Source: Halobacteria archaeon (GTDB taxonomy: Bacteria; Pseudomonadota; Gammaproteobacteria; UBA9214). From it: a stretch of 34,294 bases of DNA. Position 1 is the stretch's first letter. The number at the start of each line of letters is the position of its first letter. The notes under the pieces were generated by a model. It was given only the letters and a program-made list of their open reading frames with translations, was not told where the DNA came from and made no database searches. Of this stretch, positions 1,066 through 18,392 are shown in pieces. Position numbers and translations under genes: made by a program. Where the stretch lies: the NCBI GenBank assembly GCA_013041945.1, contig JABDRC010000256.1:1-34294 (forward strand), written 5' to 3'.

Positions 1066-2499
1066 ATGCAAACAGAATTCAGGGTCCTGGTATTAGAGTC
1101 TGATCCCGCTATCGGCAAGGAACTGCAGTCCGTGCTGAATTTCATCGGCTCCAGCCCGGTGCTGGTGAAAGATGTCGACCGCTGGAAGGAAGCCGTCGAC
1201 GACAAGGAGCAGTTGCAGGCCGTCATGCTGGGCTCGTGCAATTCAGGTAAACAGCTGTCAGCCATTCTCACCGAGATTCACCAGTTTGATGAGCACCTGC
1301 CCGTGTATCTCCTGAGTGACAAGGGCAAGGAACCCACGGTCACCATTGACTCGGGTTCGTGCATCCTGGGGAGGCTGGAGTTGCCGCCGAATTACACCCA
1401 GCTGACCAGCGCGCTGCACCAGGCGGAAATCTATACCGAGTCTCACCGGGCGCCGCAATCAGAACAGCGTCCGGTCGACCTGTTTCGCAGCCTGGTTGGC
1501 AGCAGCCGGGCCATCCAGAATGTCCGCAAACTCGTCCAGCAGGTGGCAGACAGCGATGCCAATGTCCTGATACTGGGCGAGTCGGGGACCGGCAAGGAAG
1601 TCGTTGCCAGGAACCTGCATTACTACTCATCGCGTCGTGACAAGCCGTTTGTTCCGGTCAACTGCGGCGCGATTCCGGGTGACCTGCTTGAGTCGGAGCT
1701 GTTCGGGCACCGCAAGGGCGCCTTTACCGGGGCAATCAACGATCGCCAGGGCCGCTTCGAAATGGCGGAGGGCGGCACACTGTTCCTCGACGAGATCGGT
1801 GACATGAGCCTGCAGATGCAGGTGAAGATACTGCGCGTACTGCAGGAACGCACCTTCGAGCGCGTCGGCTCGAACCAGAGCATTACCTCGGATGTCCGCA
1901 TCATTGCAGCCACCCACAGGAATCTCGAGGAAGCGATCGTGCAGGGCGATTTTCGTGAAGACCTTTTCTATCGCCTGAACGTATTTCCGATCGAGATGCC
2001 TTCGCTGGCAAACCGCGTGGAGGATATCCCGCTGCTGGTCAACGAACTGGTGCGTCGCATCGAGTACGAGAAACGCGGTTCCGTCCGGCTTTCCCCGGGC
2101 GCGATTTACTCGCTGTGCCAGTACAACTTCCCCGGCAATGTTCGGGAGCTGGCGAACCTGGTGGAGCGGCTCGCAATCCTGCATCCATACGGTGTGGTCG
2201 ATGCCAGTGATCTGCCGGAGAAGTTTCGTCAGCACGACACCGAACGCGACGGTGAACTGCCGGAACAGGTGGCTGATGCCCTGATCGGAACACCGGTCAC
2301 GTCACACGATCTGGATCCGCGCTTGCCGCGTGATGGCATGAACCTGAAAGAACACCTCAGCCTGCTCGAGGTGAGTTATATCAAGCAGGCTCTGGCCGAT
2401 ACCGGCGGCGTCGTGGCTCATGCCGCCAAGCGTCTTGGTATGCGGCGTACGACCCTGGTCGAGAAGTTGCGCAAGTACGGCATGCAGCGTCAGTCCTGA
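1066..2499 (+). CDS. fleQ: Sigma54-dependent flagellar master regulator FleQ (FleQ-type N-domain, AAA+ domain, Fis-type HTH)
   Basis: 477-aa ORF. The N-terminal receiver-like domain has the LNFIG motif and no phospho-acceptor Asp. Walker A is GESGTGKE, the sigma54-contact loop is GAFTGA, Walker B is LFLDEIGD. The C-terminal HTH is [20 protein letters not shown]. Confidence 0.88.
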
Positions 2500-2828
2500 C
2501 CCTCGCTCTGCAGCGCGCAGCGGTCCATCAAGCGTCATTTTTTCCACGTCTGCCCGGCCTTTATTTGCCGGACGGGCTGTGCTAGATTCCGCTCTAACAG
2601 CAAGTAAATAAATTTAATAACAACGTCTATTGTTGTCGGATAACCGCGAGTGTTCGCCTGACCTGAAGGCCTGAGGGGCTGTTCGGGTGATTCTTTTTGT
2701 CTTTGCCTGAACATGCGGCAGCTTTACACAGCCGTTATCCGTACGGTCAGCAACACAAAGCAATAATATAATGACTGATAAAGAACACAAAGCAGGGGGG
2801 CATTGCCGGCAGGGAGGCCGGCAATAAC

Positions 2829-5030
2829 ATGCATACCGGCGACGGATCACATTATCATTCGCGCGACTATAGATATGTTCTGCGTCTGTCGGGTGAGGAA
2901 CTCGCGGTAGTCAGGAAATACCGCGATGAACTGGTCGCCTGTACCGCGGGTTTTGCCGAAGTCTTCTACAACTATCTTTTCGATAATCCGGGTATCGCGG
3001 AAGTCCTTTATGCCTATGAGGAGGAAGGCGGCGATGTCGGCCAGTTCGCGCGTGCCGAGCTCGCAAACCTGCTGGCCAGTATCGCCGGCGAGATCGGCGG
3101 GCAGCGCGAGGATGAGTTGCTGTCGGCCGGCCGCCGGTACCTGCAGCGAAATTTCAGGCCGGTCTGGCTGATCGGCGCGTATAACCTGCTCATCGATTAC
3201 ATGCACACCATGCTGTCCGGAATGGAGATACATCCGGCCGACCGTATTGCACTGGATACACTGCTGACGCGCCTGCTGTTGCGGGAAATGGGTATCACGC
3301 TGGAAGGCTACTGGATGCAGGCGCGCGACAATGAACGCCGGGAACTCGAACACATAGCGGGCCGTCTTGGCCGCGTGGAGGATATGCTGGCGGGTGTCCC
3401 GCATTTGATGTGGAGCGTCGATATCGACGCCAACAGCCTTGTGTATGCCAATTATACGCTGCACCTGCTTTACGGAGAGGGCATGATATCGCCGCTGCCG
3501 TGCATCGGTGATACACATGAAGAGGACCGCCAGTTGTTACTGACCGCCTGGCAGGATGCGGTCAGCGGCAAGCGGACCCGGGCCGATGTGCGGATCGTGC
3601 TTGCCGGTGATCGTGAGCGCTGGTACCGGGTGTCACTCTATCCGGAGACCGGCCAATCGGGCCGGCCCGCTACGGTGCACTGCATGCTGGAGGATGTCCA
3701 GAACCTGATCAGTGAGCGTGAGCAACTGCAATCGCTGGCAACCACGGACCGGCTGACAGGCCTCCCCAACCGCTCCCTGTGGTCGGACCACCTGACAATG
3801 GCACTCGCCGCTTCGAGACGGGTGCCCGGCTCACAGGTGGTCGTGATCTCTCTCGATATCAACCAGTTCAAGATGTACAACGACACCCTCGGCAGGGACG
3901 TTGGCGATACCGTGCTGTGTGATGTGGCCTCACGGCTGCGTTCCACGGTGCGTGAATCGGACTCGCTGGCGCGGCTGGGCGGAGACCGTTTCGGTATCCT
4001 GCTGCATCCGGTCAACAATGCACGCGAGGCCGCTGAACGGATTATCACCGAAATAATGGACAAGTTCGACCTGCCATTTGCCTACAGGGACAAGCAGCTT
4101 TGCGTGAGTCTGACACTCGGCATCGCCTGTTTTCCCGACGATGGCAGCAACGAGGAGGCGTTGCTGGCAAATGCCGAGAGTGCCATGCAGCGGGCCAAGC
4201 GGAACAGCCTGCCTTACCAGTATTTCGACCCGGTCAATGATGTCAGCCCGGCAGAGCAGCTGCGCTACTCCGGGCAGATACGCTCGGCACTCGACAATAA
4301 TGAGTTCGAGCTGCTTTATCAGCCGCAGATTTCCCTGGATACTGCCCGGATTACCGGCGCCGAGGCGTTGCTGCGCTGGAAGCATCCGGTGGAAGGTATT
4401 GTGATGCCGGAACGCATTATCCCGGTCGCGGAACAGCTCGGGCTGATCACGCCGATAACCAACTGGGTGCTGGTTACCGCGCTGAAACAGTGCCGGCAGT
4501 GGTCATTTCAGGGTGCGGCGATCCCTGTCTCGGTGAATGTCTCGGCACGTTCTTTCCAGAATCCGCGTCTCCTCGAAAGAATTCACTGGGCCCTGCAGGA
4601 GGCCGCCGTGGAGGGCGACCGGCTGGTGATCGAAATTACCGAAGCGACCCTGATGCAGGATATCGATCGCGCCACGGAACTGCTGTCCAGCCTGAGCGAG
4701 GCCGGCGTCACCATCGCAATCGATGACTTCGGAACCGGTTATTCTTCACTTTCCTACCTGAAGCGGTTGCCGATCGACACCCTCAAGATCGATCAGTCGT
4801 TTGTCACCGACGTCGCCTTCGACCGTCAGGATATCGCAATTGTCCGTTCCATCATCGACCTTGGCCATAATCTCGGTTGCAAGGTGGTGGCGGAGGGCGT
4901 CGAAAACAGCATGACCATGGATGCGCTGGACCGGCTCGGCTGCGATACCGCACAGGGCTTCCATATCAGTAAACCGCTGCTGGATGATCATTTCTCTACG
5001 CTGCTGGGGCAAACTGACAGACAATCCTGA
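2829..5030 (+). CDS. Globin-like sensor / PAS / degenerate GGDEF / EAL protein; predicted c-di-GMP phosphodiesterase
   Basis: 733-aa ORF. EAL-domain signatures are intact: EALLRW, VNVS, EITE, DDFGTGYSSLSYL, KIDQSF, AEGVE, QGF. The GGDEF fold is recognisable (DRLTGLPNR ...), but the active site reads GGDRF (aa 384-388, nt 3978-3992). An RESD I-site sits five residues upstream of it. The N-terminus (FAEVFYNYLFDNPGIAEVL ... RPVWLIGAYNLL) resembles a sensor-globin domain. Confidence 0.85.
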   Translation: MHTGDGSHYHSRDYRYVLRLSGEELAVVRKYRDELVACTAGFAEVFYNYLFDNPGIAEVLYAYEEEGGDVGQFARAELANLLASIAGEIGGQREDELLSAGRRYLQRNFRPVWLIGAYNLLIDYMHTMLSGMEIHPADRIALDTLLTRLLLREMGITLEGYWMQARDNERRELEHIAGRLGRVEDMLAGVPHLMWSVDIDANSLVYANYTLHLLYGEGMISPLPCIGDTHEEDRQLLLTAWQDAVSGKRTRADVRIVLAGDRERWYRVSLYPETGQSGRPATVHCMLEDVQNLISEREQLQSLATTDRLTGLPNRSLWSDHLTMALAASRRVPGSQVVVISLDINQFKMYNDTLGRDVGDTVLCDVASRLRSTVRESDSLARLGGDRFGILLHPVNNAREAAERIITEIMDKFDLPFAYRDKQLCVSLTLGIACFPDDGSNEEALLANAESAMQRAKRNSLPYQYFDPVNDVSPAEQLRYSGQIRSALDNNEFELLYQPQISLDTARITGAEALLRWKHPVEGIVMPERIIPVAEQLGLITPITNWVLVTALKQCRQWSFQGAAIPVSVNVSARSFQNPRLLERIHWALQEAAVEGDRLVIEITEATLMQDIDRATELLSSLSEAGVTIAIDDFGTGYSSLSYLKRLPIDTLKIDQSFVTDVAFDRQDIAIVRSIIDLGHNLGCKVVAEGVENSMTMDALDRLGCDTAQGFHISKPLLDDHFSTLLGQTDRQS

Positions 5031-5044
5031 TTACCCTGCACGCC

Positions 5045-5071
5045 GGACCGGTACGTCTCCCAAACCGGTCC
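5045..5071 (+). terminator. Hairpin 15 nt after the phosphodiesterase stop (possible terminator, no U-tract)
   Basis: GGACCGGT (5045-5052) pairs perfectly with ACCGGTCC (5064-5071) across an 11-nt loop. No T-run follows, so terminator function is uncertain. Confidence 0.25.
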
Positions 5072-5105
5072 ACATCAGTCAATTACCTGTCGGCAACCGC
5101 GAATT

Positions 5106-5119
5106 GTCAAAATTGTGAC
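5106..5119. promoter_or_regulatory. FleQ-box-like palindrome GTCA-N6-TGAC upstream of fleN
   Basis: GTCAAAATTGTGAC compared with the P. aeruginosa FleQ box GTCaNTAAAtTGAC (consensus recalled from memory). Both outer half-sites match and the centre diverges. It lies about 210 nt upstream of the fleN ATG. Confidence 0.2.
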
Positions 5120-5327
5120 GTAAGTCCGTTTGTTTGCGGAATCCTCGGTAAACTTATCATAATCAATTAAAACAATAAGTTGTAGTCCTGTTGGGCGCAA
5201 ACCCTCGTTGCCAGACGGGTTGGTATGCAAGTTGCTAAATCACATTGCAGATGCTCACCTGCCAGCACCACAGGACAGCCATAGATGGATTACAGACAGT
5301 TTCACCACATGTGCCGCGGTACTCGAT

Positions 5328-6215
5328 ATGCAGCTTGCTGATGTAAAGCTCGACCTGTCCTCCGCGCCGGCAGACGACAGCCGCCGCGAACCGGTCCAGG
5401 TGATCGCGGTCACCGGCGGCAAGGGCGGTACGGGCAAGACCAGTATTTCCGTCAACCTCGCGCATGGCCTGGCGCGCAGCGGGCGCAGGACCATGTTGCT
5501 CGATGCAGACCTGGGAATGGCGAACGTGGATGTCCTGCTGGGTCTGTCGCCGCAACGGACACTGTTCGACGTGGTGAACGGTGAGTGCCGGCTGGAACAG
5601 ATCATCATGACAACAGCGGACGGACTGATGGTGGTGCCGGCCGCTTCCGGGGTGCGTCAGCTTGCACAACTCGGCACCCGCGAATGCGCCGGACTGGTGC
5701 GTGCCTTCAGTGACCTGGATCGACCCCTGGATACATTGATCGTCGATACCGCGACGGGCATCTCGGAGTGTGTTGCAAGTTTCTGCCGCGCAGCTACCGA
5801 AATCATCGTCGTGGTTTGCAACGAGCCGGCATCGATTCGCGACAGTATTGCGCAGATCGAGATGTTGTCAGCAGATTACGGCATTCACCGGTTTCGCATC
5901 CTGGCAAACATGGTGGCTGGTGCACGCGAGGGCAAAGTGGTCTTCAGGAAGATCGTTGCCACGCTCGCCGACGATCACCGCCAGGTACTTTCCTATGCCG
6001 GTTATATACCGCGCGACCAGCATTTGCTCGAGGCGATAGCCGGTCGCATATCTGTCGTCAGCGCTTTTCCACGCAGTCGCGCAGCAATGGCACTGGCAAA
6101 TCTTGCCAGGCAGGTAATTTCGTGGCCGCAGCCGGTACAGGCAGGCGGACATGTAGAGTTTTTTGTCGAACGCTTGATCCAGAACGAAAACAGCGGGAAG
6201 GAGGTTACGTCATGA
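5328..6215 (+). CDS. fleN: Flagellar number regulator FleN/FlhG (MinD/ParA-family ATPase)
   Basis: Deviant Walker A is VTGGKGGTGKTS. LLDADLGMANVDVLLGL is typical of FleN/FlhG rather than MinD. The stop overlaps the fliA ATG (ATGA). The track ORF opens at TTG 5208; I prefer ATG 5328 (295 aa) on length, but the start is uncertain. Confidence 0.82.
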   Translation: MQLADVKLDLSSAPADDSRREPVQVIAVTGGKGGTGKTSISVNLAHGLARSGRRTMLLDADLGMANVDVLLGLSPQRTLFDVVNGECRLEQIIMTTADGLMVVPAASGVRQLAQLGTRECAGLVRAFSDLDRPLDTLIVDTATGISECVASFCRAATEIIVVVCNEPASIRDSIAQIEMLSADYGIHRFRILANMVAGAREGKVVFRKIVATLADDHRQVLSYAGYIPRDQHLLEAIAGRISVVSAFPRSRAAMALANLARQVISWPQPVQAGGHVEFFVERLIQNENSGKEVTS

Positions 6216-6940
6216 AAGCCAATGCAGCGAAGACAGGCGCTGAATACAGTGACAGTAATGAGCTGGTGGTGCAGCATGAACCACTGGTCAAACGAATAGC
6301 CTATCACCTGATGAGCCGCTTGCCGGCCAGTGTGCAGGCAGATGATCTCATCCAGGCCGGTATGATCGGCCTGATCGAAGCATCGAGAAAATTTGACCCG
6401 GAACAGGGTGCCAGCTTCGAGACCTATGCCGGCATCCGCATACGCGGCGCCATGCTCGACGAGATCCGCCGTACCGACTGGACACCGCGCTCGGTGCATC
6501 GCAAGGCCCGCGAGGTCGCCGAGGCAGTGCGCAAGATCGAGAACGCGGTCGGACGCGATGCACGTGATGTCGAGGTGGCGGAAGAAATGGGTCTGAGCCT
6601 GCACGATTACCACAAGATTCTGCAGGACTCGACCGGTTGCCGGATTTTCAGTTTCGAGGACCCGGGAACACTGGGGGATGAAGGTTATCCGCAATCCAAC
6701 CGCCAGCCGAACCAGCCGCTGGAAACGTTGCAGAAGAGTGACTTCAAACAGGGACTCGCCGAGGAAATCAAGGGATTGCCGGAACGCGAACGCCTGGTAA
6801 TGGCGCTCTACTACGACGAGGAACTCAATCTGCGCGAGATCGGCGAGATCCTCGGTGTCAGCGAATCACGTGTGTGCCAGATACACGGGCAGGCCCTGAT
6901 CCGCCTGCGTGCGCGCATGGGTGAGTGGCTGACCGACTGA
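6212..6940 (+). CDS. fliA: Flagellar sigma factor FliA (sigma-28)
   Basis: The 242-aa product starts MKANAAKTGAEY. PLVKRIAYHLMSRLPASVQADDLIQAGMIGLIEASRKFDPEQGASFETYAGIRIRGAMLDEIRRTDW is near-identical in pattern to Pseudomonas FliA. A GGAAGGAGG Shine-Dalgarno precedes the ATG. The upstream part of track ORF 5768..6940 is an out-of-frame overlap with fleN. Confidence 0.92.
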   Translation: MKANAAKTGAEYSDSNELVVQHEPLVKRIAYHLMSRLPASVQADDLIQAGMIGLIEASRKFDPEQGASFETYAGIRIRGAMLDEIRRTDWTPRSVHRKAREVAEAVRKIENAVGRDARDVEVAEEMGLSLHDYHKILQDSTGCRIFSFEDPGTLGDEGYPQSNRQPNQPLETLQKSDFKQGLAEEIKGLPERERLVMALYYDEELNLREIGEILGVSESRVCQIHGQALIRLRARMGEWLTD

Positions 6941-14262: not shown

Positions 14263-14574
14263 TCAGCGCTTCTGGTGTTTGTACTTCTTGCGCAGGCGCT
14301 CGCGTTCCCGGGGCGACATGTTCTTGTATTCATCACGCTTGCGCCTGACCGCCTCGCGCTTGTTGGGCGGCAGGTCCAGGTATTTGCGTGCGCCCTGCCT
14401 GAGACGTGACTGTTTGTTCCGGTCGAGCCTGGACCAGTCCTTGCGATGCTTTTTCAGAACTTCCTGCTCGCCGTTGCTCAGGTTCTGCCAGGGAATGCCG
14501 TTGTCGGCGAGGGCAGGCGCAGTGCCGGCCAGGCAGGTCAACAGCAGGGCAATCATCAGGGTCCGGAAGTTCAT
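14263..14574 (-). CDS. DUF3106-like periplasmic protein (signal peptide, basic helical repeats)
   Basis: Last 103 aa of track ORF 14263..15153. Signal peptide is MNFRTLMIALLLTCLAGTAPALA. It is followed by W..L....Q..L and R..R-rich repeats (WQNLSNGEQEVLKKHRKDWSRL, MSPRERERLRKKY). The ATG lies 1 nt after the anti-sigma stop. The family call is from pattern memory only. Confidence 0.6.
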   Translation of the reverse strand: MNFRTLMIALLLTCLAGTAPALADNGIPWQNLSNGEQEVLKKHRKDWSRLDRNKQSRLRQGARKYLDLPPNKREAVRRKRDEYKNMSPRERERLRKKYKHQKR

Positions 14575-14575
14575 G

Positions 14576-15031
14576 TCAGGTACTGCCGTTGTCGGTCTCG
14601 CTCTCATTCTGGTTGGCCAGCCACAGGTAGAAATCAAGGTCTTCGTAGATGTCCGGCACCATCCGGGTTTCGGCCACCATATTATTTGTATCAATGCCGG
14701 GCCGGGTTGTCCAGAGGCCCACGGTAACGGCCAGCACCAGGGTTGCGGCCGCCGCATAGGGCAGCAGCGACCGGTGACGTTTATTTGCGCTGCCGCCGTC
14801 CGCCAGTGCCTGCCGGCGTGCTGTCTGCAGCGCACTGCCGATGCTGCCGGTGTCAACCTGCGGTCCCAGCGCATTCGGATCCAGCTGTCGCCAGATGCCG
14901 GTGTGTATACGACAGTGTTCGCAGCCGGCCAGGTGTTGCTCGATGGCGGCTTTTTCCTCGGGCCGGTCGTCCAGCAACCCGGCGCGCAAACGGTCCAGTT
15001 GTTCGGTGTCAGGATGTCGTTGGTTGTGCAT
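14576..15031 (-). CDS. Anti-sigma factor (zf-HC2), single TM, short acidic periplasmic tail
   Basis: 151-aa ORF. The HLAGCEHC motif fits H-x3-C-x2-C. TM helix is LLPYAAAATLVLAVTVGLW. The 44-aa periplasmic tail is rich in D/E. It overlaps the 3-prime end of the ECF sigma gene by 23 nt. Confidence 0.75.
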   Translation of the reverse strand: MHNQRHPDTEQLDRLRAGLLDDRPEEKAAIEQHLAGCEHCRIHTGIWRQLDPNALGPQVDTGSIGSALQTARRQALADGGSANKRHRSLLPYAAAATLVLAVTVGLWTTRPGIDTNNMVAETRMVPDIYEDLDFYLWLANQNESETDNGST

Positions 15032-15605
15032 GGGTCCACACCTCCGCCAGTTGTTTTCTTAATGCTCTCATCGCCCTGAAATGGTGTTGCTTGATACTGT
15101 TTTCCGAGCATCCCAGTGTCCGGGCGGTTTCCCGTATGCTCAGGCCGCGCCACTCGCGGAGAATGAATACCTGGCGCTGGCGCTCCGGCAGTGCCAGCAT
15201 CGCGTCTTCGACCTTCCCCCTGATTTCGCTGGCGACGTACTCGACCTCGGGGGCAGTAATACCGTCCGTTCGTTCGGCATCCGGCAGCTCGTACTCCGCG
15301 GTTGCCTGGCTGTCGTCCTTCTGCCTGAACAGCCCGGTCAGCGATACCAGCTTGTGCTTGCCCTGCTCGATCATGCGGCGACGGCGGATATCGTTGATCT
15401 TGCTGTTCAGCACAGTGCGGAACAGTGCGGGCCAGTCCTGTTCCGGCTTGCCGCGGTAATACTCGACCATCCGCAGCATGCTGTCCTGTACGGCGTCCAG
15501 CGCAGCCTCCCGGTCCCAGAGGGCGGCGTAGGCCACATAAAAGGCCTTTTCCTCGTGCGCGACAAAGAAACTTTCCAGCTGCTGGTTGTTGTTGTCCGGT
15601 TCCAA
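15009..15605 (-). CDS. ECF-type RNA polymerase sigma factor
   Basis: C-terminal 198 aa of track ORF 15009..16043. Region 2 is ALDAVQDSMLRMVEYY. Region 4 is LPERQRQVFILREWRGLSIRETARTLGCSENSIKQHHFRAMRALRKQL. The start is assigned to TTG 15605 because the only upstream ATG (15734) would overlap the His-rich gene by about 60 nt. The start is uncertain. Confidence 0.75.
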   Translation of the reverse strand: MEPDNNNQQLESFFVAHEEKAFYVAYAALWDREAALDAVQDSMLRMVEYYRGKPEQDWPALFRTVLNSKINDIRRRRMIEQGKHKLVSLTGLFRQKDDSQATAEYELPDAERTDGITAPEVEYVASEIRGKVEDAMLALPERQRQVFILREWRGLSIRETARTLGCSENSIKQHHFRAMRALRKQLAEVWTHAQPTTS

Positions 15606-15625
15606 GGTGGCACCCGTTGAACGGA

Positions 15626-15659
15626 CCGCAGGACGACCGTGATGCGGTCGTCCCTGCGG
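15626..15659 (-). other. Strong intercistronic RNA hairpin between the His-rich gene and the ECF sigma gene
   Basis: The minus strand reads CCGCAGGGACGACCG-CATCA-CGGTCGTCCTGCGG. That gives 9 perfect bp plus 5 more after a one-base bulge, with a 5-nt loop. No U-tract follows. Confidence 0.45.
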
Positions 15660-15672
15660 GGGGATTGGACGG

Positions 15673-16305
15673 CTACAGACGTCCAGTATAACCCAGGCCA
15701 GTCCGGGAGCGGGTGCTGTGCCGATTTCTGTCATGTCTGTTTCCATCCCGATGCTGCGAGTCATGACGATCACCGCGGTGTTTGCGGTCTCCGTCGTGCT
15801 TGCCGTGATGACGGTCACCGCGGTGTTTGCGGTCTCCGTCGTGCTTGCCGTGATGACGGTCACCGCGGTATTTGCGGTCCCCATCATGCTTGCCGTGATG
15901 ACGGTCACCGTGGTGTTTGCGGTCTCCGTCATACTTGCCGTGATGACGGTCACCGTGGTGTTTGCGGTCTCCGTCATGGCGGTCGTAATGGCGGTTGTGC
16001 TTGCCATGTCCTTTGTGTCGGTCATGGTCGTCATGACGGTCATGGTGGCGTCTCAGGTTTTTCCAGTAGTGTCTGCCATGGTGCTTGCCGTGTTTGAAGT
16101 GTTGGTGGTGCTTGCGGTGCTTGTGGTGAGGCCGGCGATCACGGTGTTTGTAGTTGTAACCGTGGTCAGAGTAATACGGGTAGTCGTAATCCCCGCTGTA
16201 ATAGTGGACGGATGATTTTCCACCATGCGCACTGGCCGGGGCGGTCAAGCCGAGGCTCAGCGCGGCAGCCAGCAGGGCCGGGGTAATCAGGGATCGTATC
16301 TTCAT
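15673..16305 (-). CDS. Secreted histidine-rich tandem-repeat protein (210 aa precursor)
   Basis: GGAG sits 7 nt before the ATG. The signal peptide is MKIRSLITPALLAAALSLGLTAPASA, ending before HGG. The mature part is dominated by H, D, R, K, G and Y, with repeats of HGKHDGDRKHRGDRH. It runs co-directionally with the flanking genes. Confidence 0.7.
   Translation of the reverse strand: MKIRSLITPALLAAALSLGLTAPASAHGGKSSVHYYSGDYDYPYYSDHGYNYKHRDRRPHHKHRKHHQHFKHGKHHGRHYWKNLRRHHDRHDDHDRHKGHGKHNRHYDRHDGDRKHHGDRHHGKYDGDRKHHGDRHHGKHDGDRKYRGDRHHGKHDGDRKHRGDRHHGKHDGDRKHRGDRHDSQHRDGNRHDRNRHSTRSRTGLGYTGRL
15763..15978. repeat. 45-bp tandem repeat, about 4.6 copies, in frame within the His-rich gene
   Basis: Unit (+ strand): ATGACGGTCACCGCGGTGTTTGCGGTCTCCGTCGTGCTTGCCGTG. 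Copies start at 15763, 15808, 15853, 15898 and 15943 (the last is partial), with a few substitutions per copy. Confidence 0.9.
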
Positions 16306-16338
16306 GGTGCGGCTCCATTTTTGTTAACTCGAATACAG

Positions 16339-16366
16339 TTAACGCGGCTCCGCGGATTTGGTTAAC
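16339..16366 (-). promoter_or_regulatory. Candidate ECF-type promoter (GTTAAC-N16-CGTTAA) upstream of the His-rich gene
   Basis: The minus strand reads GTTAAC (16366-16361), then 16 nt, then CGTTAA (16344-16339). This matches the generic ECF architecture AAC-N16-CGT. It lies about 35 nt upstream of the ATG at 16305, inside the 64-nt psd / His-rich spacer. Confidence 0.35.
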
Positions 16367-16369
16367 GCC

Positions 16370-17289: not shown

Positions 17290-17751
17290 CTACGGGTGCT
17301 GGTCAAGGGTCATGCGGGCCACCGGCGCGTCGACGGCCAGGCAGGCCCCGTCTCTGACGTGCAACAGCAGCTCGACGCTGTCCCCGGCGGCCAGCGGCCG
17401 AGCCGGGTTGAACAGCATCAGGTGGTAGCCGCCCGGCTCGAGAACGAACGACTCACCGGCCGGTATCTCCAGCTGTTCGGCGGACAGCATGCGCGCCATA
17501 CCGTTTTCCATGACTGTCCGGTGGATTTCAACGGAACTGAAATCGGCGGCAGAGACGCCGGAAACGGTCGCGTGCGCCGTGCCGCGGTTGGTGATCTTCA
17601 GGTAACCGGCGAGTACCGTGGCACCGGGCGGTGCCTCGCGGACCCAGGCGTCGCTGACCACGAGATCCATCTCTGCGCTGGCCGGTAATACGGGTAACAG
17701 CACACCCAGCAGGGCCGCCAGCAACCCGGTACGAAACCGCGGATGACTCAC
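17290..17751 (-). CDS. Periplasmic copper chaperone PCu(A)C (DUF461)
   Basis: 153-aa ORF with a signal peptide. The copper-ligand pattern is HRTVMENGMARM ... GGYHLML (H(M)X10M ... HXM). There is a 4-nt overlap with the SCO1 gene. Confidence 0.85.
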   Translation of the reverse strand: MSHPRFRTGLLAALLGVLLPVLPASAEMDLVVSDAWVREAPPGATVLAGYLKITNRGTAHATVSGVSAADFSSVEIHRTVMENGMARMLSAEQLEIPAGESFVLEPGGYHLMLFNPARPLAAGDSVELLLHVRDGACLAVDAPVARMTLDQHP

Positions 17752-18392
17752 CGGTAATCCCTGGCCATCATGCTGAAATCGCCGGCCATGGCCTCGGCGG
17801 TCAGCGGCGGTGAAAACACCGCATGGTAGTTGCCGTCCGGGTCGAACAGGAATACGCTGGCGGTGTGGTCGACCAGGTAGCCGGCCGCATTATCCGCATC
17901 GTTGACCCGCATGAACATGATACCCAGCTGTTTGGTCAGCTGCTGCAGGTCGGTTTCGCTGCCGGTTACGCCGATAAATTTGCCGTTGAAGTAGGTGACG
18001 AATTGCCCGAGTTTTTCGGGGGTGTCGCGTTCGGGATCGACGGTGACCATGACGAAGCGAATATTTTCACCGGCATCCTGCAGGCGCCGGGCCACGCTGT
18101 TCAGAACCGACATGGTTGTCGGGCACACGTCCGGACAATGTGTGTAACCGAAAAACAGGAATGACCAGTGACCGGCCAGCGTCGCGTTGTCGAATACATT
18201 GCCATTATGATCGAGCAGGCTGAAGGCCTGTACCGGGCGCGCCGCCGGGAACCGCGTCGCGGCCAGCGGATCGGCGACGGGGGAGTGCTTCGTCAGCAGA
18301 CTGGCCACCCATATGCCGGCGCCCATGGCGAGTGCGCCGATAATGATGCCGGGTATCAGTTTGGTTCGAATAAAGGAGTTTCGCTGTTGCAT
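17748..18392 (-). CDS. SCO1/SenC family copper chaperone (thioredoxin fold)
   Basis: 214-aa ORF. It has an N-terminal TM anchor, the FFGYTHCPDVCPTT CxxxC motif and the downstream conserved His (LVDHTAS). Confidence 0.88.
   Translation of the reverse strand: MQQRNSFIRTKLIPGIIIGALAMGAGIWVASLLTKHSPVADPLAATRFPAARPVQAFSLLDHNGNVFDNATLAGHWSFLFFGYTHCPDVCPTTMSVLNSVARRLQDAGENIRFVMVTVDPERDTPEKLGQFVTYFNGKFIGVTGSETDLQQLTKQLGIMFMRVNDADNAAGYLVDHTASVFLFDPDGNYHAVFSPPLTAEAMAGDFSMMARDYR

Follow-up and report, generated by a model that had tools for sequence, protein, structure and literature searches.

What could an exported protein that is almost one-quarter histidine be doing at the head of a unit that encodes an extracytoplasmic function (ECF) sigma factor? 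The question is raised by a gene on NCBI contig JABDRC010000256.1, whose whole length of 34,294 bp was analysed and is called the window below. Coordinates are those of its forward strand. The gene, here called the His gene, encodes the His protein and lies on the minus strand; an earlier reading of this DNA (the original prediction) gave no strand. It is followed by genes for the sigma factor, an anti-sigma factor and a secreted DUF3106 protein (Table 1). Judged by comparison of homologous loci, the open reading frame (ORF) is a genuine protein-coding gene. We are highly confident of the anatomy proposed for the locus, in which an ECF promoter would drive the gene for an exported His protein, transcription would read through to the sigma and anti-sigma genes, and a TATACT element would give the latter two a basal supply.

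Homologous loci were collected in a genome scan that took one genome per species and used the downstream sigma factor as query. The scan yielded 56 loci, almost all from metagenome-assembled genomes (MAGs) of uncultured Gammaproteobacteria.

Coding frame and its annotation

A small same-strand ORF with a signal peptide is found directly upstream of the sigma gene in 37 of the 50 loci that have sequence there, and every full-length metagenome allele has one too. The His frame is open in every homologous locus, with a conserved signal peptide and Shine-Dalgarno sequence and a fixed distance to the promoter, whereas the two other sense frames contain stops in 27 of 27 loci and the antisense frames are open in at most five of the 27. 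Pairwise dN/dS for the mature part in the His frame ranges from 0.14 to 0.47; because these values are below 0.5, the gene appears to be under purifying selection. Every indel or length difference among close alleles is a multiple of 3. The histidine-rich frame of the original prediction is therefore the one supported as coding, with the alternatives closed in homologues.

It has to be asked whether the repeat might instead be non-coding, or the real product an antisense ORF or an extension of the sigma factor. Database content lends this some support: the 210-aa product is missing from a collection of 15 billion proteins in which the psd product and the anti-sigma factor of the same contig are present, an annotation pipeline called an antisense ORF at the equivalent place in locus L071 (1943-2299), and in L060-L066 (2295-3023) the sigma factor was called as a 242-aa protein overlapping the His gene, not as the 198-aa product with a TTG start. 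Pipelines did, however, call His-frame products of 153 and 170 aa in eight contigs, and homology among the sigma factors begins only at LEPDNNN. Together with the frame conservation and the dN/dS values, these observations make a wrong frame very improbable. The antisense hydrophobic ORF and the 344-aa sigma extension of the window were rejected as mirror or overlap artefacts of the His codons. In L071 the sigma product called at the corresponding position has 198 aa.

Annotation of this gene thus calls for caution, pipelines having missed it, annotated the antisense ORF in its stead or extended the adjacent sigma gene too far. Five short-read contigs of close relatives (L004, L014, L067, L068 and L070) stop inside the sigma gene or at or near the His-gene repeat. 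These breaks are consistent with a tandem array that disrupts assemblies, and suggest that the gene is under-represented in databases.

Promoters and transcription unit

ECF promoter. ECF promoters are typified by an AAC-containing -35 element and a CGT-containing -10 element. The motif GTTAACC-N15-CGTTA, which has both, is placed immediately before the His gene (Table 1). It is the single match in the 34-kb window, where 0 were expected (100 shuffles). Each of 24 related loci has a single copy of the identical motif, always at the same distance from the ATG; no further site was found in the window or in the ~0.5 Mb of related loci. More distant relatives, whose sigma factors are 44-52% identical, have a variant in its place, GTCAACC or GTCACCC-N15-16-CGTTA. 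We infer that the downstream sigma factor uses this promoter; the co-conservation of promoter and sigma factor is what autoregulation predicts. The palindrome GTTAAC occurs three times within the 50 nt upstream of the ATG (16320-16369, minus strand), in the -35 element, overlapping the -10 element and in the 5′ untranslated region (GAGTTAAC); most relatives have GAGACAAC in place of this last copy.

Sigma factor, anti-sigma factor and DUF3106 protein. The sigma factor matches TIGR02937 at 79.5 bits, above the cutoff of 42.9. Its best NCBIfam match is PRK09047 (NF006550), at 158.2 bits and so below the 173-bit cutoff; by these scores it is a relative of that equivalog, not a member. The anti-sigma gene encodes a single-pass protein, whose periplasmic tail has a near-invariant motif, PDIYEDLDFYLWLA, kept throughout the sigma clade, even where sigma identity is as low as 44%. 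The DUF3106 gene is conserved after the anti-sigma gene, and the trio of sigma, anti-sigma and DUF3106 genes is conserved in nearly all loci. The DUF3106 protein was modelled by AlphaFold as helices only, with a predicted local distance difference test (pLDDT) score of 82. Despite this confident helical model, likeness to CpxP or Spy was rejected, as neither Foldseek against the PDB (best E 5.7) nor phmmer gave a match.

The locus thus has the features of an autoregulated ECF sigma/anti-sigma operon, recognition of the motif by the sigma factor being presumed from sequence. The original prediction had made the His gene the first of an ECF sigma operon, and it is indeed promoter-proximal, between the conserved ECF motif and the sigma and anti-sigma genes; to this we add a second promoter-like element, TATACT, before the sigma gene. 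In the proposed scheme, transcription would start at the ECF promoter, and the His gene would be translated and its product exported. Read-through past a hairpin that lacks a T-run would then feed the sigma and anti-sigma genes, amounting to positive autoregulation, while TATACT would provide these two with a separate, basal and ECF-independent supply. The His protein would be made essentially only upon release of the sigma factor from the anti-sigma factor, and would be the main non-regulatory output, a new periplasmic product. In our search of the literature no paper was found that connects an ECF sigma factor with DUF3106, with DUF3619 or with a His-rich protein of the periplasm.

TATACT element. 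This hexamer, which resembles a sigma-70 -10 element, is present between the His gene and the sigma gene in 28 of 29 close-clade loci (at equivalent positions in L001-L028 and L057-L059). Its placement varies: it falls within the last codons of the His gene or 10-34 nt past the stop, and it is found in loci that lack the His gene. No conserved -35 element was noticed with it in the close-clade loci. It is probably an internal promoter, a candidate source of a basal, ECF-independent supply of sigma and anti-sigma factor and perhaps DUF3106 protein. The C-terminal peptide GIGYTGR(L/S) was considered as an outer-membrane-protein-like or PDZ-activating signal; this was rejected, the conserved unit being the DNA hexamer. 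The residues themselves vary, and TATACT is equally conserved beyond the stop codon and in gene-less loci, so the apparent conservation of the peptide GIGYTGRL is explained by that of the overlapping DNA element. What looks like conservation of a peptide at the C terminus can thus reflect a DNA element that overlaps the coding end. Inside the 3′ end of the His gene of L027 (~4895-4920), just upstream of TATACT, there is a second motif, GTTAACC-N11-CGTTAA, with a spacing below consensus.

Hairpin. Minimum-free-energy folds place strong hairpins, unrelated in sequence, at the place equivalent to the window's GC-rich hairpin in most homologous loci. The hairpin of L057/L058 (~3530-3560) has the sequence of the window hairpin in reverse complement, with TGATG instead of CATCA in the loop; the stem is kept and the palindrome inverted. 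The hairpin may stabilise or partly insulate the upstream transcript. Its role as an intrinsic terminator is not supported, as it has no T-run and a consensus scan gave no terminator call. A His-leader-peptide attenuator was likewise rejected, given the 210-aa ORF, its signal peptide, the purifying selection and a hairpin without a U-run. The only Rfam matches in the window were two tRNAs; no other known RNA element was found.

Table 1. Features of the His gene and its locus in the window
Feature	Coordinates	Strand	Details	Basis
ECF-type promoter motif GTTAACC-N15-CGTTA	16340..16366	minus	34 nt upstream of ATG, in the 64-nt gap after psd	
-35-like element GTTAACC	16360-16366	minus		
-10-like element CGTTA	16340-16344	minus		
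Shine-Dalgarno sequence GGAG	16313-16316	minus	7 nt 5′ of the ATG (16303-16305)	Sequence; same position in homologous loci
His-rich protein gene	15673..16305	minus	ATG start, 210 aa; stop TAG at 15673-15675 included	ORF list
Sec-type signal peptide MKIRSLITPALLAAALSLGLTAPASA	16228..16305	minus	aa 1-26; predicted cleavage after ASA, then HGG	
In-frame tandem array	15763..15978	minus	45-bp period, 4.8 copies, 93% matches, 0 indels, score 369	Tandem Repeats Finder
TATACT hexamer, sigma-70 -10-like	15685..15690	minus	Inside the last His-gene codons, GGT TAT ACT GGA = G-Y-T-G	
GC-rich hairpin	15628..15657	minus	Stem of ~12 bp, 5-nt loop, no following T-run; between His and sigma genes	
ECF sigma factor	15009..15605	minus	198 aa; probable TTG start 15603-15605	Sigma70_r4_2, 7.5e-17
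Single-pass anti-sigma factor, zf-HC2 (HxxxCxxC)	14576..15031	minus		Pfam
Anti-sigma periplasmic tail	14576-14710	minus	Near-invariant acidic-aromatic motif PDIYEDLDFYLWLA	25 orthologues aligned
Secreted DUF3106 protein	14263..14574	minus	103 aa, basic, all-helical	Pfam PF11304, 4e-13
Antisense hydrophobic ORF	15718-16215	plus	Alternative product if the His frame were wrong; rejected	
344-aa extension of sigma ORF	15009-16043	minus	Alternative product if the His frame were wrong; rejected	

Export, composition and family

Signal peptide. Read from the sequence, the signal peptide is laid out as MKIR, SLITPALLAAALSLGL and TAPASA, with H after the cleavage site. It has a positive n-region (K2 and R4), about 16 hydrophobic residues and A-S-A at positions -3 to -1; inspection of the sequence found neither a twin-arginine motif nor a lipobox Cys. 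Among 27 homologues M1 and A26 are invariant, and conservation of L12 and L18 is 90% or more. From these classical features and their conservation, the His protein is predicted to be exported by Sec and to be a substrate of signal peptidase I. Both the signal peptide and the GGAG Shine-Dalgarno sequence 7 nt from the ATG had been proposed in the original prediction, and both stand.

Composition. The mature part of 184 aa contains 44 His (23.9%), 31 Arg, 27 Asp (14.7%), 26 Gly, 18 Lys and 13 Tyr, with no Cys, Met or Ala. The figure of about 25% His given earlier was fair, although the hand count of ~48 behind it was slightly high; that the remainder is mostly D, R, K, G and Y, and free of Cys, agrees with the count. 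The six frames of the window contain 101 ORFs of 100 aa or more, with a mean His fraction of 0.037 (standard deviation 0.029); the precursor, at 0.21, far exceeds all the others. The mature part has 10 HH, 15 HxxH and 11 HxxxH pairs. Arg and Lys make up 27% of it. Calculation puts its net charge at about +22 for pH 8 and about +61 for pH 5.5, a swing of about 40 units; the charge is also +22 with His left out.

Predicted structure. AlphaFold2, run on a seven-sequence alignment, gave a mean pLDDT of 46, with the signal peptide as the only helix and no other secondary structure. The mature His protein is predicted from this model to be intrinsically disordered.

Close family. In the close clade, where sigma factors are 57-98% identical, the His-gene ORFs encode 91-194 aa with 15-28% His plus Arg, Asp, Gly and Tyr. 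They share the signal peptide, an hSIxY-like motif right after it and a central basic motif RHYxKxLRRHH. Net charge is positive throughout the family; the Asp fraction ranges from 0.03 to 0.24.

Searches. For the window protein, Pfam and NCBIfam gave no family at E<=0.01, and the PDB no sequence match at E<=1. Pfam and NCBIfam likewise gave no credible match at E<=1 for the 27 family members, and none at E<=0.1 for the ten positional equivalents from distant genomes. When 5.8 billion proteins were searched with a profile, seven matched, all ‘hypothetical’ or unnamed and none with a Pfam domain. An exhaustive hidden Markov model search of 1.84 billion cluster representatives gave 31 matches at E<=1e-3; like the structure prediction, it used the seven-sequence alignment, not the full 27. 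The original prediction had recognised no named family, and these searches agree. Going by the sequences recovered, the His-protein family is small, unnamed, fast-evolving and confined to this bacterial group.

Distant equivalents. In distant genomes the positional equivalents are rich in Gly, Tyr, Arg and His and have little Asp. When the close-clade family was aligned to them with hhalign the probability was 90.7%, with the alignment limited to the signal peptide and ~12 residues; homology is on this account regarded as unproven.

Tandem repeat and copy-number variation

The 45-bp unit of the in-frame array encodes HDGDRKH(R/H)GDRHHGK. The original prediction had the unit essentially right, with 4.6 copies in place of the 4.8 reported by Tandem Repeats Finder. 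It also held the array to be young and liable to vary between strains. Copies in the window are 93% identical and those in a sister allele 100% identical, as expected of a young array, and close relatives have 4.8, 2.8, 2 and 1 units. The ~2.8 copies are those of L071, which has the same 45-bp unit as the window and a protein of 168 aa. The other two counts come from a sister population, in which the anti-sigma protein is identical across contigs and a derivative unit of 51 bp is present in 1 or 2 copies. Its alleles encode either 153 aa (L058/L060, which are one contig, L062, L063, L064, L066 and L069) or 170 aa (L057, L061 and L065). The two classes differ by exactly one 51-bp unit, both copies of which are 100% identical; over 1.6 kb, L057 and L058 share 99.8% identity. 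Independent in-frame arrays are found in other lineages, where the period is 36, 39, 45, 48 or 54 bp.

A possible cation buffer

For the function of the His protein we lean, tentatively and with somewhat less than even confidence, towards a periplasmic buffer of high capacity and low specificity for cations, whether metal ions or protons. Near neutral pH the 44 imidazoles and 27 Asp carboxylates would chelate Zn, Ni, Co and Cu(II); upon acidification the same side chains would take up protons, as in the calculated rise of net charge. Such buffering would protect envelope components, and in-frame gain or loss of repeats would tune buffer capacity between strains. In favour of this are the contents of His and Asp, the many HH, HxxH and HxxxH pairs, and the 15-28% at which His is kept across the close family.

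The original prediction had suggested a metal buffer or a sensor partner, an idea drawn from composition only, and several points weigh against the buffer. The Arg and Lys content should oppose cation binding and is atypical for known metal sponges. Binding of Cu(I) or Ag(I) in the manner of SilE is excluded, because the mature protein has no Met and no Cys. Neither metal efflux nor metal-resistance genes were found in the window, and the anti-sigma factor has no recognisable periplasmic metal-binding domain by Pfam and orthologue alignment. The distant positional equivalents are Asp-poor and Gly/Tyr/Arg/His-rich; since, in addition, homology to them is supported only near the signal peptide, the ancestral property may have been that of a ‘sticky aromatic polycation’ instead of a metal ligand. 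All the genomes are uncultured MAGs, and use of the ECF promoter by the sigma factor and promoter activity of TATACT are both inferred.

The family-wide positive charge, set against an Asp content that is not maintained, brings in a different function, that of an envelope protectant or disordered chaperone in the manner of Asr, the acid shock protein of Enterobacteria. Charge and aromatic residues would bind lipopolysaccharide, phospholipid head groups, periplasmic glucans or unfolded proteins; as a variant, the protein might form pH-triggered condensates, as His/Gly/Tyr-rich proteins do elsewhere. The composition of the distant positional equivalents and the predicted disorder of the mature protein fit this as well. 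Asr provides a precedent: PMC10746267, which cites Ren et al. 2022, presents it as a basic and disordered protein of the periplasm, induced by stress, that helps to keep the outer membrane intact and acts through its net charge. The Pfam searches revealed no sequence relation to Asr or to any chaperone family, however, and the constancy of His at 15-28% in the close clade suggests that imidazole itself matters. We consider a protectant role rather unlikely. It overlaps with buffering of metal or protons, and present evidence does not separate the two.

Gene loss and the question of a regulatory role

Gene-less loci. In seven loci (L023, L025, L026, L032 and L050-L052) the His-gene ORF is missing, with the promoter and the genes for sigma and anti-sigma factor retained. 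Where the His gene would be there are 160-430 nt of non-coding DNA; DUF3106 was detected in L023, L025, L026 and L050. The PDIYEDLDFYLWLA motif of the anti-sigma factor is unchanged in the gene-less lineages that were aligned (L023, L025 and L026). In L026 (4601-5000) the 400-nt spacer, translated in one frame, gives stretches rich in D, R and H (HPNDRDRYGNTGH..., RRDDARLARHGRQRENRH) and may be a decayed gene remnant.

That such lineages keep the rest of the module argues against the His protein as an indispensable ‘sensor partner’. The His gene looks like a dispensable ECF-induced output and not a core sensor, a view based on its placement between the ECF promoter and TATACT, its rapid divergence and the lack of further motif sites in the ~0.5 Mb of related loci.

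Anti-sigma tail. The PDIYEDLDFYLWLA tail is a candidate docking site for the DUF3106 protein or the His protein, going by its conservation. This bears on a regulatory reading, in which the basic His-rich protein would bind the tail or the DUF3106 protein in a pH- or metal-dependent way and set the threshold or duration of sigma release. CpxP acting on CpxA and CnrX acting on CnrY are precedents, and cnrY and cnrX precede cnrH much as the His gene, in the same unit, is ahead of the sigma and anti-sigma genes. The periplasmic part of the anti-sigma factor is only ~44 aa, with a strongly conserved acidic-aromatic motif to which the net charge of the His protein (+22) is complementary, and the short conserved motifs hSIxY and RHYxKxLRRHH resemble docking motifs. 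Yet at least seven lineages keep promoter, sigma and anti-sigma genes without the His gene, and the tail is alike in loci with and without it, showing the same PDIYEDLDFYLWLA motif wherever aligned; length (91-210 aa), composition and repeats also vary greatly, which is unusual for a specific sensor partner. A regulatory ligand is accordingly unlikely in our judgement.

A bolder idea is that the His polycation is part of an undescribed form of ECF signalling, with pH- or metal-switched binding to the PDIYEDLDFYLWLA tail or the DUF3106 protein, self-induced feedback and a gain set by repeat copy number. We hold this to be quite improbable. If true, it would be an ECF system that senses through an intrinsically disordered co-factor with repeat-length polymorphism within populations.

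Relation to known systems

SilE and PcoE. SilE, a disordered protein of the periplasm, is described as a ‘molecular sponge’ and has been proposed to take up metal there (PMC5008109). Like SilE and PcoE, the His protein would be Sec-exported, disordered, rich in metal ligands and induced within a dedicated stress regulon. The His and Met motifs of those proteins (HxxM, MxxH) serve Ag(I) and Cu(I), whereas the His protein lacks Met and Cys; it is, moreover, strongly basic and tandem-repeated, with an ECF promoter in place of a two-component system and no efflux pump nearby. Similarity to SilE or PcoE was not found in the profile searches, which gave no named relatives; no pairwise alignment to SilE was made.

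Asr. Asr resembles the His protein in being small, exported, disordered, basic and His-containing and in being made abundantly only under a specific envelope stress. It differs in being Lys/Ala/Gln-rich with modest His and in not being under an ECF sigma factor, the His protein being H/R/D/G-rich without Ala. The His protein had no Pfam match of any kind, that of the Asr family included. SilE and Asr are, by analogy, functional precedents and not relatives.

CnrYXH. In Cupriavidus metallidurans this is an autoregulated ECF unit that senses Ni and Co, has periplasmic accessory genes before the sigma gene and uses His in metal sensing. The likeness is that a periplasmic accessory gene precedes the sigma gene in what appears to be an autoregulated ECF unit. 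CnrX folds as a four-helix dimer, and the anti-sigma factor is CnrY; here, in contrast, the upstream protein is predicted to be disordered, and is hypervariable and apparently dispensable, and a zf-HC2 anti-sigma factor is encoded after the sigma factor. Nothing places the His protein in the Metal_resist/LTXXQ group (CnrX, ZraP, CpxP and Spy): there was no Pfam match, no predicted fold and no PDB match.

CpxP, Spy and ZraP. These small periplasmic proteins are the most strongly induced outputs of their own stress systems, and some feed back on the sensor. They are folded helical hairpins with LTXXQ motifs, which neither the His protein nor the DUF3106 protein matches by sequence.

Hpn. Hpn and Hpn-like of Helicobacter pylori have very high His content and low complexity and function in metal storage or buffering. 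The His protein shares the high His content and low complexity. Hpn differs in being cytoplasmic, without a signal peptide, in having Cys pairs and poly-His runs and in not being basic; there is no homology. Nickel trafficking is reviewed in PMC3856676.

A periplasmic, disordered, ligand-rich protein induced by its own stress system was thus known already. New are the His-protein family and its fixed place in an uncharacterised ECF/zf-HC2/DUF3106 module, a layout of two putative promoters that overlaps the coding end, and the population-level repeat polymorphism. If the proposals are correct, they define an unannotated and often mis-called protein family and a conserved ECF module of four genes, present in widespread, uncultured Gammaproteobacteria of sediments. 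Such a module would offer a clean promoter/sigma pair, GTTAACC-N15-CGTTA with its sigma factor, and a natural case of a stress-induced, disordered periplasmic protein whose capacity is tuned by in-frame repeat change within populations. Present evidence overturns nothing known of metal or envelope stress biology.

Surrounding genes

Genes for PCuAC and SCO1/SenC copper chaperones (17290-18392, minus strand) are two and three genes upstream of the His gene, with psd between. A functional link was rejected: the PCuAC-psd-His-sigma synteny is confined to the close clade, and distant modules adjoin a short-chain dehydrogenase gene. At 1066-6940 on the plus strand there is a cluster of flagellar and cyclic di-GMP regulators, namely a FleQ-like sigma-54 activator, a PAS-GGDEF-EAL protein, a FleN/MinD-like ATPase and a FliA-type sigma factor. 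Housekeeping genes make up the remainder of the window: queA, tgt, secDF, suhB, a prmB-like gene, aroC, leuCDB, asd, fimV, truA, trpFBA and accD. With flagellar and housekeeping genes as its surroundings, the locus is taken to be core chromosome and not an island.

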